NCBI GenBank assembly: GCA_000432255.1
Contig: HF989914.1
Coordinates: forward strand, 11,270 to 75,269
Source: Acholeplasma sp. CAG:878
Lineage (GTDB): Bacteria; Bacillota_I; Bacilli_A; RF39; UBA660
DNA length: 64,000 nucleotides
Direction: 5' to 3'
The notes under the pieces are model-generated. The model was given only the letters and a program-made list of their open reading frames with translations. It had not been told where the DNA came from and searched no databases. Made by a program: the position numbers and the translations under genes. Below are positions 1,417-61,200 of the stretch, in pieces; position 1 is the stretch's first letter; each line of letters begins with the position of its first letter.

Positions 1417-2613
1417 TTAAGATTTTACAACATAAGGGTCTGAGCTTGTTCCACTTCCAGTAACTAATGTATCAGCACTTAGGTTAATAACAGGTCGAAC
1501 GCCATAATTACTGGCGACATGAAAGTCGCCAGTACGACCAGCGCTAACAACACCCCAAGCACGTGCATAATCATTATAAGTATAGAAGCCGGCGGGGCTC
1601 ATCATACAATATGCACTTCCATTTTTTAGATAAAAGTTTGAACTACTTCCTATTACTCCACCTGCAAATAGTACTTCATCTATTGTTATCAAACCTACTT
1701 TTCCACTTACGACACCTTTTCCGTTTCCATCTGTTGTACAATCAAATGATGGTGTGTAATTATCTTTTGTTGCTACTGTAGCACTTCCTGCAGTATAGTT
1801 TGTATTATATACTACTTTTGCTTGTTCACAAAAATAATTTCCATTTACCACTTTTTCATCAAAACCTTTGTCACTTATATTTGTTTTATACCAGTTTTCT
1901 ACTGCTGTTTTGATTTCTGAGTTTGTATAATACATTTTATCATATGTATTGTATGCACTATTAAATTTTTGACTTGAGATAACATTATCTTGTGTTATTA
2001 ATCTCATTGTTCCATCTTCATTGATTCTTACTATTCTCCATACTTTGTCAGCAAACTTTACATAATTATTTTCTACTGCTCCTTTAAAATAATATGTCGT
2101 TCCAGTGCTAGTGGTTTTTGAATATAATCCATCTCCACTTGTAACAACATTGGAATCATTAGTTCCTAACAACTTTTCTTTGAGTATTGGTTCTGATGAT
2201 ACATCATTTTCTTTAGTACAAGTAACATTACTATTAATAGTTCCATCACTATTTACATTCGTACATACATAATCTTTCATTGAAGCAAACTTTACTCCTT
2301 CAATCTTAATTCCTTTTTCAACGCTATCTTTTGAATTATAGATTGTCCATGTTCCTGCTATTGGTTTTTCTCCTGCTACTGTTAATTCATTTACATCTCC
2401 AGTAGTTATTTTATTTAAGTTTAGTAATCCTTCGGCATATTTTGTTCTTACCGCATCGATTACTCCATAGCAACTTTTTTCTATTGACTTAATTTTGGCA
2501 TTTTCGATGACATTAAATATTATTGGAGTTGTTATTAAGGCTATTATTGATAATACTACAATTACTGCCAATAATTCAATTAATGTAAATCCTTTTTTCT
2601 TTTTATTCTTCAT
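1417..2613 (-). CDS. Prepilin-type (class III signal peptide) protein with a large C-terminal domain; paralog of 49105..50902
   Basis: The N-terminus MKNKKKKG|FTLIELLAVIVVLSIIALI carries a prepilin cleavage/methylation motif with Glu at +5, followed by about 370 aa. The C-terminal roughly 200 aa (YYFKG...MSPAGF...GVRPVINLSADTLVTGSGTSSDPYVV) are closely similar to the C-terminus of ORF 49105..50532. Confidence 0.8.
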   Translation of the reverse strand: MKNKKKKGFTLIELLAVIVVLSIIALITTPIIFNVIENAKIKSIEKSCYGVIDAVRTKYAEGLLNLNKITTGDVNELTVAGEKPIAGTWTIYNSKDSVEKGIKIEGVKFASMKDYVCTNVNSDGTINSNVTCTKENDVSSEPILKEKLLGTNDSNVVTSGDGLYSKTTSTGTTYYFKGAVENNYVKFADKVWRIVRINEDGTMRLITQDNVISSQKFNSAYNTYDKMYYTNSEIKTAVENWYKTNISDKGFDEKVVNGNYFCEQAKVVYNTNYTAGSATVATKDNYTPSFDCTTDGNGKGVVSGKVGLITIDEVLFAGGVIGSSSNFYLKNGSAYCMMSPAGFYTYNDYARAWGVVSAGRTGDFHVASNYGVRPVINLSADTLVTGSGTSSDPYVVKS

Positions 2614-2744
2614 ATACTACTATTCCTTTCCTTATTTTTTAATATTATTTAATTTACTACTATTACTACTTTTTATGCACCGCCACCTTTTTTTATAAGT
2701 ATATTGTTAACTATAAAATACCATTTGATTATTTTCACAACACA

Positions 2745-2885
2745 TTCTTTGTTAAAAAACAAAAAAACACATCAAAAAACTAGTTTTCTCGTGTTTATTT
2801 ATATGGTTAGTTAAATACTTCTCTTTATTTGTTAACTTATTATATATATTATTTAACATAACCATATTGTTCACTCCTTGTTTTT
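2745..2885 (-). promoter_or_regulatory. Conserved upstream element, copy A (SD + short uORF + 17-bp inverted repeat + hairpin/T-run)
   Basis: Minus strand reads AAGGAGTGAacaatATGGTTATGTTAAATAAT...TATTTAACTAACCATATAAATAAACACGAG-AAAACTAGTTTT-TTGATGTGTTTTTTT. Arms atatggttatgttaaata and tatttaactaaccatat form a 17-bp inverted repeat separated by about 33 nt. The same block recurs at 50985..51125. Confidence 0.5.
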
Positions 2886-2968
2886 TTTAAATCTTTATTT
2901 AATTTGCAAATACAAATCAATAGTCATATCTTATGACAAGATAATCGTATCATATAAAATATAAAAAT

Positions 2969-3655
2969 TCAATATTTATTCAACATTTTTAATCTTCTAA
3001 TTACTTTCTTTTCGATTCTTGAAATATAAGATTGACTTATTCCCATAACCTCAGCAACATCTTTTTGAGTCAACTCAGCTTGACCATATAGTCCATACCT
3101 TAATGTCATTATTTTTTTATCACGAACTGGTAATTTATCAATCTCTTCATACAATATTTTTTTATCAATCTCATCTTCTAATGGTTTAGTTACTATATTA
3201 TTTTCTGTTCCTAAAATATCTTCTAAATGCAGTTCATTTCCTTCACTATCATAACTAAGACTATCTTCAAAACTAACTTCACTTCTTCTTTTTTTGTTTT
3301 TTCTTAAAAACATTAAAATTTCATTATCAATACACCTTGATGCATATGTAGCTAATTTAATATTTTTATCTAATTTATATGTATTAACACCTTTTATTAA
3401 TCCAATTGTTCCAATACTTACTAAATCTTCCAAATCCACACCTGTATTTTCATATTTTTTAGCTAAAAACACTACTAATCTTAAATTGTGTTCGATTAAT
3501 TTTTTTCTTGCTTCCTCTTCACCTTCTTGACTCCTAAGCACGTATGCTACTTCATCTTCTTTTGATAATGGTTCTGGTAGCTTATCCGCACTCCCTACAT
3601 AAAATATTTCACCTGTAAATATTTTTAATATTAATTCTTTAATTTTTTTTAACAT
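2969..3655 (-). CDS. sigE: Sporulation sigma factor sigma-E (pro-sigma-E)
   Basis: The protein aligns along its full length to B. subtilis SigE. The pro-sequence region ...EIFYVGSADKLPEPLSKEDE matches ...EVYYIGGSEALPPPLSKDEE, and LIEHNLRLVVFLAKKYENTGVDLEDLVSIGTIGLIKGV, KLATYASRCIDNEILMFLR and TQKDVAEVMGISQSYISRIEK are all shared. A GGAGGAATGAA SD lies in the 3' end of spoIIGA. Confidence 0.9.
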   Translation of the reverse strand: MLKKIKELILKIFTGEIFYVGSADKLPEPLSKEDEVAYVLRSQEGEEEARKKLIEHNLRLVVFLAKKYENTGVDLEDLVSIGTIGLIKGVNTYKLDKNIKLATYASRCIDNEILMFLRKNKKRRSEVSFEDSLSYDSEGNELHLEDILGTENNIVTKPLEDEIDKKILYEEIDKLPVRDKKIMTLRYGLYGQAELTQKDVAEVMGISQSYISRIEKKVIRRLKMLNKY

Positions 3656-8008: not shown

Positions 8009-8093
8009 TGGTGCGTGAAAAGAGACTTGAACTCTCACGATTATTAATCACAGACACCTCAAGCCTGCGTGTCTACCATTCCACCATTCACGC
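8009..8093 (-). tRNA. tRNA-Leu (anticodon GAG), class II with long variable arm, CCA encoded
   Basis: Minus strand: GCGTGAA-TG-GTGG-AATGGTAGA-CACG-C-AGGCT(T)TGAGG... The acceptor stem GCGTGAA/TTCACGC is perfect. The anticodon stem CAGGC/GTCTG encloses loop TTGAGGT (anticodon GAG). It has a long variable arm, T-arm GAGAG-TTCAAGT-CTCTT, discriminator A and CCA. Confidence 0.85.
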
Positions 8094-49104: not shown

Positions 49105-50532
49105 TTATTTTACAACATAAGGATTAGCACTTGTTCCACTTCCAGACACAAGCGTATCAGCACTTAGGTTCAAAACTGGGCGGACGCCACGAGTAGCGCT
49201 GACATAATCGTAGTTAGTAGTACCATCACTATTAGCATACCAAGCATTAGCATTAGCACTATTATACATATTACTGAAGCCGGCGGGGCTCATAGTCCAA
49301 TAACTACTTCCACTATTCAAGTAATATGGATAACTACGCCCTCTTACATAATACCATCCTCCAGCATAGATTGTCTCATCATATGTTACTAATCCTACTT
49401 TTGATGTTACTACTCCTTTTCCATTTCCATCTGTTGTACATTCAAATGTTGGTGTATATGATTCTTTTGCTGTCAATTTTGTAGAACCTGTTTTTAATTT
49501 AAAATTAGTTCCATCATATGCAACTCTTGCAGCCTCACAGAAATAGTTTCCACTTACTACTTTACTTGCATTATCTCCTGTTATATTGGTAGTAAACCAA
49601 TTATCAACTACCGTTTTAAGTTCTGAATTTGTATAATACATTTTATCATATGTTTTGTATGTACTATTAAATTTATTGTATCCAATACTTGATGTTAACA
49701 TTATTCTAATTGTTCCATCTTCATTAACTCTTAATATTCTATAGTCTTTTCCTGCAAATTTTATGTAGTTATTTGTTGGATTTCCTCTGAAATAATATGT
49801 TTTATTACCCCCCAATGTTTGGGCATATAATCCGCTTTGGTCACTTGTTTGCCATGAAGTTGTCCAAGTTTGGTCAGTTGCTATTACATTAGAGTTATTT
49901 GTTCCTAATATTGCACTTTTTAAGCCAACTGTATTACTAACTGTTATTTTTACAGTTGCTTCTGCAGTTTTTCCATTTGTTCCTGTTGCTGTACATTTTA
50001 CTGTATGGTCTCCTGCATCTAATGAACTTACATTTTCTACTTCACATGTAACTTGTCCGCCAGTTTTTCCAAATTTTACATTGAAGCAATTTTTGATTTT
50101 TACATCTGTTCCTTTATTTACTGTTACTGCTGCTTCTTTCGCGCTAATAGTAGGTTGAAATTCATCAACTCCATCTTTTTCGCATGTTACTTTACTTGTT
50201 ATTTTGTCATTTTCATCAACATTTGAACAAGTATAGTTTTTCATTGATGCGAATTTTACTCCGACAATTTTGATTCCTCTTTCATCACTATTTTTTGAAT
50301 TATCTATTGTCCATGTCCCCATGTATGGATGTTCTCCTGCTATTGTTAAATCTGCTACTTCTCCTGATAGATTAACTGTTCCATCAGTTGAATTTAATAA
50401 TCCTTCTGCATATTTTGTTCTTACTGTATCGATTACTCCATAGCAACTATTTTCTAATGACTTAATTTTTGCATGGTTCCTCGTTCTTTCCATCTTTAGC
50501 GCAAGTAACTTTACTATTAATGGTTCCATCAC
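49105..50532 (-). pseudogene. 3' portion of a prepilin-type paralog: second copy of the head module + Ig-like segment + shared C-terminal domain. It has no signal peptide and is frame-disrupted relative to 50462..50902.
   Basis: Homology to 1417..2613 begins at ...AKIKSLENSCYGVIDTVRTKYAEGLLN, exactly at the stop of the upstream ORF but in another frame. There is no class III signal peptide of its own. The C-terminal 200 aa are paralogous to gene 1417..2613 (MSPAGF...GVRPVLNLSADTLVSGSGTSANPYVV). Confidence 0.5.
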
Positions 50533-50902
50533 TATTTACATTTGTACATGTATAATCTTTCATTGATGCAAATTTTACATCTTTTATTTTTATTCCTCGA
50601 TTATCTGGATTACTTGAATTATCAATCTCCCATATTCCAGCGATTGGTTGTTCTCCCGATACTGTTATTTCTGTTACATTTCCTTTTGATTTTACTGTTC
50701 CATCTTCTGAATTTAATAATCCTTCGGCATACTTTGTTCTTACCCCATCAATTACTTCATAACAACTATTTTCTATTGACTTAATTTTTTCATTTTCGAT
50801 TACATTAAATATTATTGGAGTAGCTATTAAGGCTATTATTGCTAGTACTATAATGACTGCTAATAATTCTATTAATGTAAATCCATTCTTTTTATTTTTC
50901 AT
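50462..50902 (-). CDS. Prepilin-type protein, N-terminal module only (146 aa); forms a frame-shifted tandem arrangement with 49105..50532
   Basis: MKNKKNG|FTLIELLAVIIVLAIIALI has a prepilin motif, then one head module (IENEKIKSIENSCYEVID...KVTC). It ends AKDGKNEEPCKN* where homology continues in the +1 frame. Confidence 0.6.
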   Translation of the reverse strand: MKNKKNGFTLIELLAVIIVLAIIALIATPIIFNVIENEKIKSIENSCYEVIDGVRTKYAEGLLNSEDGTVKSKGNVTEITVSGEQPIAGIWEIDNSSNPDNRGIKIKDVKFASMKDYTCTNVNSDGTINSKVTCAKDGKNEEPCKN

Positions 50903-50984: not shown

Positions 50985-51125
50985 ACAAAAAAACACGAAA
51001 GAAACCTAGGCAATAAACCTAGTTTCTCCGTGTTTATTTATATGGTTAGTTAAATAACCCCCCATGTGTTAACTCATTGTATACATTATTTAACATAACC
51101 ATATCAATCACTCCTACTATTTAAA
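50985..51125 (-). promoter_or_regulatory. Conserved upstream element, copy B: promoter (TTGAAA-17-TATTAT), strong SD, 18-codon uORF, 17-bp inverted repeat, 15-bp-stem terminator
   Basis: Minus strand: TTGAAAaatgatttattatgtgtTATTATttaaatagtAGGAGTGattgatATGGTTATGTTAAATAATGTA...TTATTTAACTAACCATATAAATAAACACGGAGAAACTAGGtttattgCCTAGGTTTCTTTCGTGTTTTTTT. It shares the ATGGTTATGTTAAATA / TATTTAACTAACCATAT inverted repeat with copy A. Confidence 0.5.
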
Positions 51126-51156
51126 TAATAACACATAATAAATCATTTTTCAAGTA

Positions 51157-56161: not shown

Positions 56162-56524
56162 TTATTCTACCTCTTTAACATCAACTTCGTACCTAAGCCC
56201 ATCATTAGTATTTGTAACAGTAATTATAGTATCGTCACTAAATTTTTTACTACTTATTGGACTAATAACATCTTTTGTTATATATCCTTTTTCTTTTAAA
56301 TCACCTAGCGTTATTGTATAGCTTTGACTTAAATCCGGCAAAAGTTCTGGATTATCAGCAAAATAATTTTTTGTATTCTCAACAATACTATTAATTTGAA
56401 TATTATATGCGTTTTTTCTATTTTCTTTTAAACTTCTATCAACTATCGTAACAACAATCGTTGCAATAATACCAAGTAGTACAACCACTCCTAATAGTTC
56501 AACTAAAGTAAATCCTTTTTTCAT
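56162..56524 (-). CDS. ComGC/PulG-like major pseudopilin (prepilin-type N-terminus), orphan
   Basis: MKKG|FTLVELLGVVVLLGIIATIVV has a class III signal with Glu+5; 120 aa. It overlaps the murC stop by 4 nt. No comGA/GB or prepilin peptidase is present in the window. Confidence 0.7.
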   Translation of the reverse strand: MKKGFTLVELLGVVVLLGIIATIVVTIVDRSLKENRKNAYNIQINSIVENTKNYFADNPELLPDLSQSYTITLGDLKEKGYITKDVISPISSKKFSDDTIITVTNTNDGLRYEVDVKEVE

Positions 56525-61104: not shown

Positions 61105-61200
61105 CTCCTTTAATCTCAGACTCGCCATTAAGGTACATTAAATGTTTATAACCTTTTTTGTGCGGTTGTAGAGAGGTCTCTACACAGTAATTAATTTTAA
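61105..61200 (-). promoter_or_regulatory. Candidate L21-operon leader RNA structure (ribosomal-protein leader)
   Basis: A GC-rich structured segment upstream of rplU on the minus strand: TGTGTAGAGACCTCTCTACAACCGCACA (nested stems), then GGCGAGTCTGAGATTAAAGGAGG leading to the ATG. This is the position where Firmicutes carry the L21 leader. Confidence 0.3.

Follow-up and report, generated by a model that had tools for sequence, protein, structure and literature searches.

Two copies of a leader element in the window

The 64,000-nucleotide (nt) stretch of Acholeplasma sp. CAG:878 DNA analysed here (contig HF989914.1, positions 11,270 to 75,269; hereafter the window) contains two copies of a short element that stands in front of prepilin-like genes. 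Both copies are read on the minus strand. Copy A (2885..2745) is bordered by the stop codon (2969) of a sigE-like sigma factor gene on one side and by a gene for a prepilin-like protein of 398 amino acids (aa) on the other, and copy B (51125..50985) lies between the gene for topoisomerase IV subunit A (parC) and a second prepilin gene. In the 5′ to 3′ direction, copy A comprises a Shine-Dalgarno (SD) sequence, the motif ATGGTTATGTTAAATAAT, a long hairpin (P1), a linker and a terminator, and a small upstream open reading frame (uORF) has its start codon within the 5′ arm of P1. The coordinates of these parts are collected in Table 1. The two copies belong to a family of leaders that bear a poly-G tract and precede about ten pilin-like genes, and copy A is a decayed and probably locked member of it.

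The original prediction for this DNA gave copy A the same layout of SD, ATGGTTATGTTAAATAAT and inverted repeat as positions 50985..51125, and this is borne out. The 27-mer TATTTAACTAACCATATAAATAAACAC is found exactly twice in the window, against an expectation of 0.00 even with up to 3 mismatches, and a blastn comparison of 2754-2878 with 50988-51115 gives 81% identity over 131 nt (E=1e-22). The resemblance of the two copies is far beyond chance. The window holds exactly two copies in total, and a covariance model built from 13 copies found no extra diverged ones in the window or in 23 loci. Owing to a 2-nt length difference, the uORFs of copies A and B are out of frame with one another past codon 13. 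We see that the 3′ arm of P1 and the linker are identical despite the differing frames, which indicates that they are conserved as nucleotides and not as protein.

In copy A, the inverted repeat ATATGGTTA(T)GTTAAATA / TATTTAAC-TAACCATAT forms P1, and the linker between P1 and the terminator remnant is AAATAAA. The folding z-score is -3.6 (-4.3 for copy B). The uORF encodes the peptide MVMLNNIYNKLTNKEKYLTNHINKHEKTSFLMCFFVF, with 37 sense codons; the 36 codons first reported were a miscount, and the listing that accompanied them had 37 residues. As had been stated, this uORF passes the second inverted-repeat arm and the hairpin, since it crosses the P1 3′ arm, the linker, the eroded terminator and the T run before it stops. 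Gene callers list it in metagenomes as a 37-aa ORF. A 12-bp palindrome, AAAACTAGTTTT, sits at 2787-2776 inside the terminator remnant, which has a folding energy of -8.1 kcal/mol compared to -20.6 kcal/mol for the intact terminator of the family, and the terminator scan that flagged copy B gave no flag for copy A. The contrast drawn earlier between a strong terminator in copy B and a weak one in copy A is borne out.

The leader promoter of copy A aligns with the promoters of other copies and scores 8/12, which is below flagging by the promoter scan; its -10 hexamer is TACGAT here, as opposed to TATGAT in other strains. The -35 hexamer (2967-2972) overlaps the sigE stop codon (TGA, 2971-2969). 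At the position that aligns with the tentative small hairpin of the leader 5′ end, copies with a long leader have CCAT(A)...(T)ATGG. Between the terminator remnant and the pilin A gene we also find promoter-like sites, TTAACA-16-AATAAT (2755-2728) and GTGAAA-17-TATAGT (2738-2710), as well as an extended -10-like sequence, TGGTATTTT, at 2723-2715. These sites are homologous to a clearer second promoter, TTGAAA-17-TACTAT with TG, at the cca locus (L038; L numbers denote loci outside the window).

Table 1 Features of the two element copies and their downstream genes; positions are those of the window.
Feature	Position	Strand	Details and basis
Copy A leader promoter	2944..2972	-	-35 TTGAAT 2972-2967, 17-nt spacer with TG 2952-2951, -10 TACGAT 2949-2944
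Possible small hairpin at leader 5′ end, GTCAT-AAGAT-ATGAC	2923..2937	-	Read from the sequence; tentative
Copy A Shine-Dalgarno, AGGAGTG, 6 nt 5′ of uORF ATG	2872..2878	-	Sequence and alignment of copies
Copy A hairpin P1, 17-bp stem, one bulged T, 32-nt loop	2801..2867	-	Folding
Copy A uORF, 37 codons and TAA (long frame)	2752..2865	-	ATG 2865, TAA 2754-2752
Decayed, interrupted poly-G remnant, AAAGAGAAG	2818..2826	-	Alignments; comparison with L039 and L040
Copy A eroded terminator, CACGAG...GATGTG (2793-2768) and T7 (2767-2761)	2761..2793	-	Folding
Promoter-like sites between copy A terminator remnant and pilin A	2710..2755	-	Promoter scan
Prepilin-like gene A, 398 aa, N-terminal methylation motif, large C-terminal domain	1417..2613	-	PF07963, E=2e-8
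Copy B promoter, TTGAAA-17-TATTAT with TG	51125..51153	-	Promoter scan
Copy B hairpin P1	51040..51104	-	Folding
Copy B uORF, 18 codons and TAA, stop inside P1 3′ arm (short frame)	51046..51102	-	Read from the sequence
Copy B poly-G tract, G6, in P1 loop and inside uORF	51058..51063	-	Run count
Copy B intact intrinsic terminator, CACGG...CGTG and T7	50987..51032	-	Terminator scan and folding
Pilin locus B, split: 146-aa prepilin and 475-aa ORF without signal sequence	49105..50902	-	

A poly-G tract sets the frame and stop of the uORF

Exact look-ups and one pattern scan of metagenome contigs, using ATGGTTATGTTAAAN{25,55}AACCATATAAAT, returned 16 loci beyond the window, and protein-based look-ups added more. 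Every copy but copy A has a poly-G tract, which begins right behind codon 13 of the uORF and is part of the P1 loop. With tract lengths taken from consensus assemblies, the values read from the DNA are 6 (copy B, L035), 7 (L028), 8 (L038), 9 (nine loci, and also L039 and L040, in which a single T and not two comes after the G9) and 10 (four loci). The length differs between strains at one and the same locus. The parC locus has G6 in the window, G7 in L028 and G9 with the single T in L039 and L040, with nearly identical flanks; at mfd the lengths are 9, 10 and 9, and at the Nudix locus they are 6 and 9. A slippable homopolymer with same-locus length differences between strains, as seen here, is the hallmark of a contingency locus. 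A census of small ORFs in public assemblies gave 1, 5, 18, 43 and 8 distinct sequences for n = 6, 7, 8-equivalent, 9 and 10, respectively, a count that over-represents the long-frame ORFs, as gene callers report these more readily. Such tracts are otherwise rare: 19 of the 20 G/C runs of at least 6 in 305 kb of this 26%-GC DNA fall in the element. The window itself has only two. One is that of copy B; the other (G6 on the minus strand, 49808-49813) lies within the 475-aa pilin ORF of locus B, at the codons ...GKTGGQ..., and may be a second slippery site or a chance occurrence.

The length of the tract determines where the uORF ends. When n is divisible by three, the peptide ends ...GGGLF(N/R), with a TAA in the P1 3′ arm, and when n leaves a remainder of one it ends ...GGGVI, at a stop 3 nt before the former. 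These short-frame stops lie about 13-20 nt upstream of the terminator. When n leaves a remainder of two, or with G9 and the single T, the uORF continues as YL(T/D)NHINKHEETRFIA and ends at a TAG within the terminator stem, in its 3′ arm. A change in tract length therefore alters both the uORF frame and the position of its stop relative to the terminator, and would through these affect the downstream gene. The earlier observation that the uORF stops inside the second arm in one copy and beyond it in the other was correct, and we now see it as the feature that varies across the entire family, switched by a poly-G tract that had gone unnoticed.

Copy A is a decaying allele

At the position of the G tract, copy A has AAAGAGAAG followed by TATTT, with the same length and frame as the long-frame allele G9+TATTT. 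In alignments, A stands in place of six of the nine G's. The interrupted tract at the long-frame length indicates a long-frame allele that is no longer able to slip. The terminator at this locus differs by strain. It is a full hairpin, CACGAGGAAACTAGGTTTATAGCCTAGGTTTCTTTCGTG, in L008, it is eroded in the window and in at least 8 other assemblies, and in L009 the terminator and about 40 nt beyond it are cleanly deleted; more variants of it are present among the called ORFs. The degenerate hairpin described in the original prediction, with its palindrome and T run, is thus real, but it represents one strain allele of a part that is decaying rather than a fixed feature of this copy.

Distribution of the family and its downstream genes

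All element loci found derive from human-gut assemblies. Of the relatives that carry them, one is labelled by NCBI as an Acholeplasma sp. metagenome-assembled genome (MAG), and others as 'Candidatus ...' or Bacilli bacterium. Among these related human-gut bacteria, the element occupies no fewer than 11 chromosomal contexts. The gene on its upstream side may be sigE, parC, mfd, rpoC, ftsZ, cca, part of an rnf-like cluster, a Nudix gene or another pilin gene, and in one context a lipoprotein gene follows it. In each it is co-oriented with a gene for a prepilin-like protein (270 to 576 aa) or a related surface protein, and this gene begins about 200-330 nt past the uORF ATG. The description of the element as one that lies upstream of prepilins holds for most members, but not for L025 (1590-2812), where it precedes a gene for a 339-aa lipoprotein (signal ...ITGCGN). 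The C-terminus of this lipoprotein (GSGT..DPYIV) matches the tail of the pilins, which indicates that the same surface domain is carried on two different anchors.

A single metagenome contained four copies of the element, on contigs of similar coverage. Contigs L008, L024, L035, L036 and L040 end within the terminator of the element or just after it; these assembly breaks indicate that the stretch from the terminator to the pilin 5′ end is a multi-copy repeat. The modules sit directly after housekeeping or sporulation genes (sigE, parC, mfd, rpoC, ftsZ, cca), which are without a separate terminator. A profile search of genome contigs with the pilin alignment returned one locus, at a contig edge with no upstream DNA.

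Not all pilin genes have the element. At a locus of the order leuS, short pilin, short pilin, lepA (L010-L017, L019) there is no uORF/P1 element, and the promoter is TTGACT-17-TATAAT, overlapping the leuS terminator. As this locus lacks the element and has its own promoter, the element is not a general pilin leader. The short pilins encoded there are probably constitutively expressed major pilins. In the window, a gene for a third and unrelated short prepilin (120 aa; 56162-56524, minus strand) immediately follows a murC-like gene, the stop codon of which overlaps its start codon, and it has no element upstream.

The pilin genes of locus B show a further peculiarity. In the 475-aa ORF, the first globular domain appears again from residue ~38 on, with a junction near 50462-50532, and with A4 in place of the A5 run in ATGCAAAAATTAAG the two ORFs would be joined in frame. 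In another strain, L039, this locus has one intact 504-aa gene, and the duplication is absent. An exact sequence look-up with the 146-aa pilin gave no record.

Conserved anatomy

Each copy has its own promoter of the sigma-A type, with an extended -10, ahead of an invariant GGAG and ATG. Those flagged by the scan are TTGAAA-17-TATTAT with TG, TTGAAA-17-TATATT with TG and TTGATT-17-TATAAT, and the distance from promoter to SD is either ~10 nt or ~85 nt. In 20/20 distinct copies the GGAG core stands at an unchanged distance from the ATG, despite differing flanks. P1 is a hairpin of 17-19 bp in the family and has thermodynamic support, at about -19 kcal/mol for one member. Its arms and the linker TAACCATATAAATAAACACG do not vary among the copies, an identity that was partly forced by the search pattern, and the GTTAAC in its loop is invariant. 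A G+C-containing stem-loop directly followed by a U run, as expected of an intrinsic terminator, is found in copy B and in all other members (-20.6 kcal/mol, T6-7, with a few compensated or wobble changes), and copy A has a remnant only. Just 3′ of the terminator, the block AAGGAAGTGATATAAAAATATAATAA is conserved even where the remainder differs. Within the uORF, codons 6-13 are variable and the changes mostly non-synonymous, suggesting that the peptide sequence is probably unimportant. The sequences of the element are mosaic across copies.

Modules differ in what lies between the terminator and the gene. In the short ones (such as copy B and the mfd locus), the promoter scan gave no other consensus promoter in this interval, although a weak candidate, TTGTTG-17-TATAAA with TG, can also be read there. 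At ftsZ, cca and one parC variant we see a second promoter, TTGAAA-17-TACTAT or TATTAT with TG. This second promoter (L038:2678-2706, with equivalents in L030 and L033 and at 2710-2755 of the window) resembles the promoter upstream of the element. Downstream of it, modules of the ftsZ, cca and sigE type have a small hairpin, AACATAC-GATA-GTATGTT, and then a further stretch of conserved leader, ...ATAAAAAGTAGTAA.AGT.GTAAATTAAATAATA....

Copies with a long leader (L018, L022, L027 and similar) have an ATG without SD about 110 nt 5′ of the uORF ATG and in frame with the uORF. From these, gene callers report 'hypothetical proteins' of 41-68 aa (MKDMVIDLVDLYILI...), one of them in the NCBI Acholeplasma sp. 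MAG. They are probably annotation artefacts of the leader.

A candidate phase-variable leader

We propose that the element is a phase-variable leader, in which slippage of the G tract would toggle the uORF frame and thereby the read-through into the surface-protein gene, with copy A as a locked-on derivative. We would put the probability of this at roughly 0.45. A slippage event would alter the reading frame of the uORF, if this is translated as its SD and start codon suggest. At n = 6, 7, 9 or 10, the ribosome would halt in the P1 3′ arm, the terminator would form and transcription would end (OFF). With G8, or with G9 and a single T, the ribosome would instead cross the linker and the 5′ arm of the terminator to the TAG in its 3′ arm, and by occupying the hairpin sequence it would permit read-through into the pilin-like gene (ON). 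Once fully transcribed, P1 would bury the start codon, and only a co-transcriptionally loaded ribosome would count; translation of the uORF would in this way be limited to the co-transcriptional window, which is when termination is decided. Copy A would then be a long-frame allele whose tract was interrupted and whose terminator, made redundant, has eroded in this strain, leaving the gene locked on. The wider claim, that poly-G tracts in leader uORFs act as phase-variable attenuators that stochastically switch each of about ten scattered pilin-like adhesin genes, through a previously undescribed coupling of slippage to termination and with copy A as the naturally locked-on case, is one we hold a little more tentatively still.

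Several observations fit this proposal. In the short modules, the sole consensus promoter on the correct strand lies upstream of the element, as suits a leader. The leader ORF runs into or across the terminator hairpin in copy A, where it ends past the T run, and in the G8 and G9+T alleles; it does not do so in the alleles with n = 6, 7, 9 or 10, copy B included. To look for an antiterminator, we mimicked a ribosome by barring the first 30-69 nt of a typical copy from pairing; in these folds the terminator remained the structure of minimum free energy and no competing helix appeared. The element is therefore not an attenuator of the trp type, and direct occlusion by the ribosome is the only visible link between uORF and termination. 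The attenuator reading offered in the original prediction is in this respect partly supported: a promoter precedes every copy, a strong terminator follows and the short modules have no other consensus promoter between terminator and gene, but the antiterminator of a classical attenuator is lacking. The accompanying suggestion that the two genes would differ in basal read-through may not apply to pilin A, which may not need read-through given the promoter-like sites between terminator and gene.

A number of points weigh against the proposal. With no antiterminator, the model needs a ribosome close behind RNA polymerase, and ribosome-polymerase coupling is reported to be weak in Bacillus subtilis. 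P1 is without covariation support because its arms were fixed by the search pattern. The length differences between strains, which we attribute to slippage, could stem from gene conversion among the mosaic paralogs. At ftsZ, cca, one parC variant and sigE (copy A), the second promoter-like site would make read-through dispensable. By our own estimate, a long frame of 16 codons would be open by chance with a probability of ~0.24 at this composition, and the distribution of tract lengths is roughly symmetric around 9, with no sign of selection on the frame.

A strong terminator without an antiterminator would also suit a different arrangement, in which the element is an independent small transcription unit making an RNA of ~120-190 nt, either a small RNA (sRNA) or the messenger of a 17-19 aa peptide, and travels by block duplication, while the terminator insulates a pilin gene that has its own promoter. 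The clear second promoter at cca, ftsZ and one parC variant, the weaker sites in copy A, the weak TTGTTG-17-TATAAA candidate of the short modules and the conservation of AAGGAAGTGATATAAAAATATAATAA past the terminator all agree with this. We nevertheless consider it, although the main rival, rather unlikely, as the scan gives no promoter between terminator and gene in the short modules and the peptide is not conserved, its positions 6-13 changing mostly non-synonymously and its C-terminus following the tract length. Orientation and close spacing to the gene are moreover always preserved, and strains drop the copy A terminator yet keep all else. The decay of tract and terminator in copy A would also fit an element that had no function of its own and was conserved only as part of a recently duplicated, gene-converted block at pilin 5′ ends, with the G tract as a neutral passenger. 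The mosaic variants do point to frequent gene conversion, and the identity of copies A and B is 81% in the element, no higher than in the adjacent coding region (79-80%). However, the promoter, SD, start codon, hairpin arms, linker and terminator are kept at no fewer than 11 loci where loop and flanks vary, and a neutral tract of G9-10 should decay quickly in a genome from which G runs of at least 6 are otherwise nearly absent, as happened once in copy A. We find the passenger explanation improbable.

The invariant GTTAAC of the loop raises the question of a switch at the level of DNA. Here the GTTAAAT / ATTTAAC arms and the central GTTAAC would be an operator, and the tract would set the spacing of half-sites, tuning the binding of a regulator and the activity of the promoter. 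By our own count the central palindrome is equidistant from both arms solely at the 8-equivalent length, and spacing-type phase variation is well known from Neisseria nadA and Haemophilus hif. The site, however, is 3′ of the promoter, in a transcribed and apparently translated region, and the tract fits no promoter spacer on either strand; there is no linked candidate regulator gene, and short palindromes abound in AT-rich DNA. This leaves the operator a slim chance. Least likely of all is a role in starting recombination, where transcription through the G run would open the duplex and promote gene conversion between pilin paralogs, like the G-quadruplex and sRNA of Neisseria pilE. In keeping with it are the strong promoter with its short, terminated transcript, the G run, which is on the non-template strand directly 5′ of pilin genes, the mosaic multi-copy pilin family and one locus with a partially duplicated pilin. 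Yet an intramolecular G-quadruplex needs four G tracts and a single run of 6-10 G cannot make one, and no silent-cassette array is seen; we regard such a role as very improbable.

If the phase-variable leader is real, frame-dependent ribosome occlusion of a terminator would be a new mechanism, and it would provide stochastic variation of surface adhesins in an uncultured human-gut commensal of the class Bacilli that is related to the Firmicutes. Phase variation by repeat slippage is textbook knowledge for Gram-negative pathogens, where it acts in coding regions or promoter spacers. Natural controls exist in the alleles from G6 to G10 and in the locked copy A with its terminator intact, eroded or deleted. 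For annotators, the 'hypothetical proteins' of 30-70 aa called at these positions would be leader frames.

Comparison with known systems

At the gathering threshold, an Rfam search of the whole window returned only an L21 ribosomal-protein leader (RF00559, 54.8 bits; 61108-61177, minus strand) and a tRNA (8012-8093, minus strand). Permissive Rfam scans of copies A and B gave chance-level matches only (E 0.14 or worse), far under the gathering scores. The element thus matches no Rfam family, and this includes the cyclic diguanylate riboswitches that are known upstream of clostridial pilin genes. Several other classes were considered and rejected. An invertible switch of the cwpV/flgB type, in which inverted repeats enclose a segment of 150-300 bp that occurs in both orientations, does not fit, as the P1 arms lie ~30-35 nt apart and 28/28 extracted occurrences, from the window and other loci, have one internal orientation. 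For an integron attC site, with its RYYYAAC before GTTRRRY, the motif order is reversed (GTTAAAT ... ATTTAAC), and there is no integrase beside any copy. The pilE-type G-quadruplex is set aside because each tract is one uninterrupted run of 6-10 G with no further G tracts nearby, and the G tract cannot be a promoter spacer, since no acceptable -35/-10 pair surrounds it on either strand. We also discarded a pairing on the model of Bacillus subtilis pyrG, between the poly-G and the terminator's 3′ arm with its many pyrimidines, since the 5′ arm is rich in purines and formation of the hairpin would come first.

With the trp and his attenuators the element shares an SD and short ORF, an upstream hairpin and a terminator before the structural gene. 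It differs from them in having no mutually exclusive antiterminator and no run of regulatory codons, except for the 2-3 GGG codons made by the tract. The enterobacterial pyrBI leader works in a way similar to the occlusion seen at msrD. In the streptococcal msrD leader (MsrDL), a ribosome on the leader ORF blocks a Rho-independent terminator and causes read-through (PMC10314930). The likeness to this pair is confined to the long frame, in which the leader ORF overlaps a Rho-independent terminator; the short-frame ORFs of the element never reach it. In addition, msrD and pyrBI answer physiological signals (drug-induced stalling and pausing dependent on uridine triphosphate, respectively), whereas the element would use a heritable frame change.

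A heritable switch between promoter and ORF has been described for cwpV of Clostridioides difficile, and is proposed to act via an intrinsic terminator in the leader of the OFF transcript (PMC2784873). Like the element, this would be a heritable, terminator-based switch in the leader of a surface-protein gene of a gut Firmicute. In cwpV the switch is a recombinase-mediated inversion of 195 bp (PMC2784873), while in the element it would be a homopolymer in a uORF, with no linked recombinase. The element shares with uspA1 a poly-G within the transcribed leader of an adhesin gene. In Moraxella catarrhalis, the 5′ untranslated region of uspA1 has a poly(G) of 9 or 10, the length of which is correlated with expression; to our knowledge no uORF, hairpin or terminator architecture has been described for it.

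Finally, the homopolymeric contingency loci, such as the poly-G tracts of Campylobacter jejuni and Neisseria pilC, resemble the element in the poly-G itself, in low GC content, in their association with surface genes and in the many copies per genome. They are also alike in that same-locus length differences between strains alter a reading frame. The general logic of such tracts is set out in two papers (PMC3546556, PMC8437040). Full-text searches of the literature returned no report of a leader uORF that carries a slippery tract and precedes a terminator. Unlike that of the contingency loci, the tract of the element lies outside both the regulated gene and the promoter spacer, and is found instead in a leader uORF, in the loop of a hairpin and just 5′ of an intrinsic terminator.

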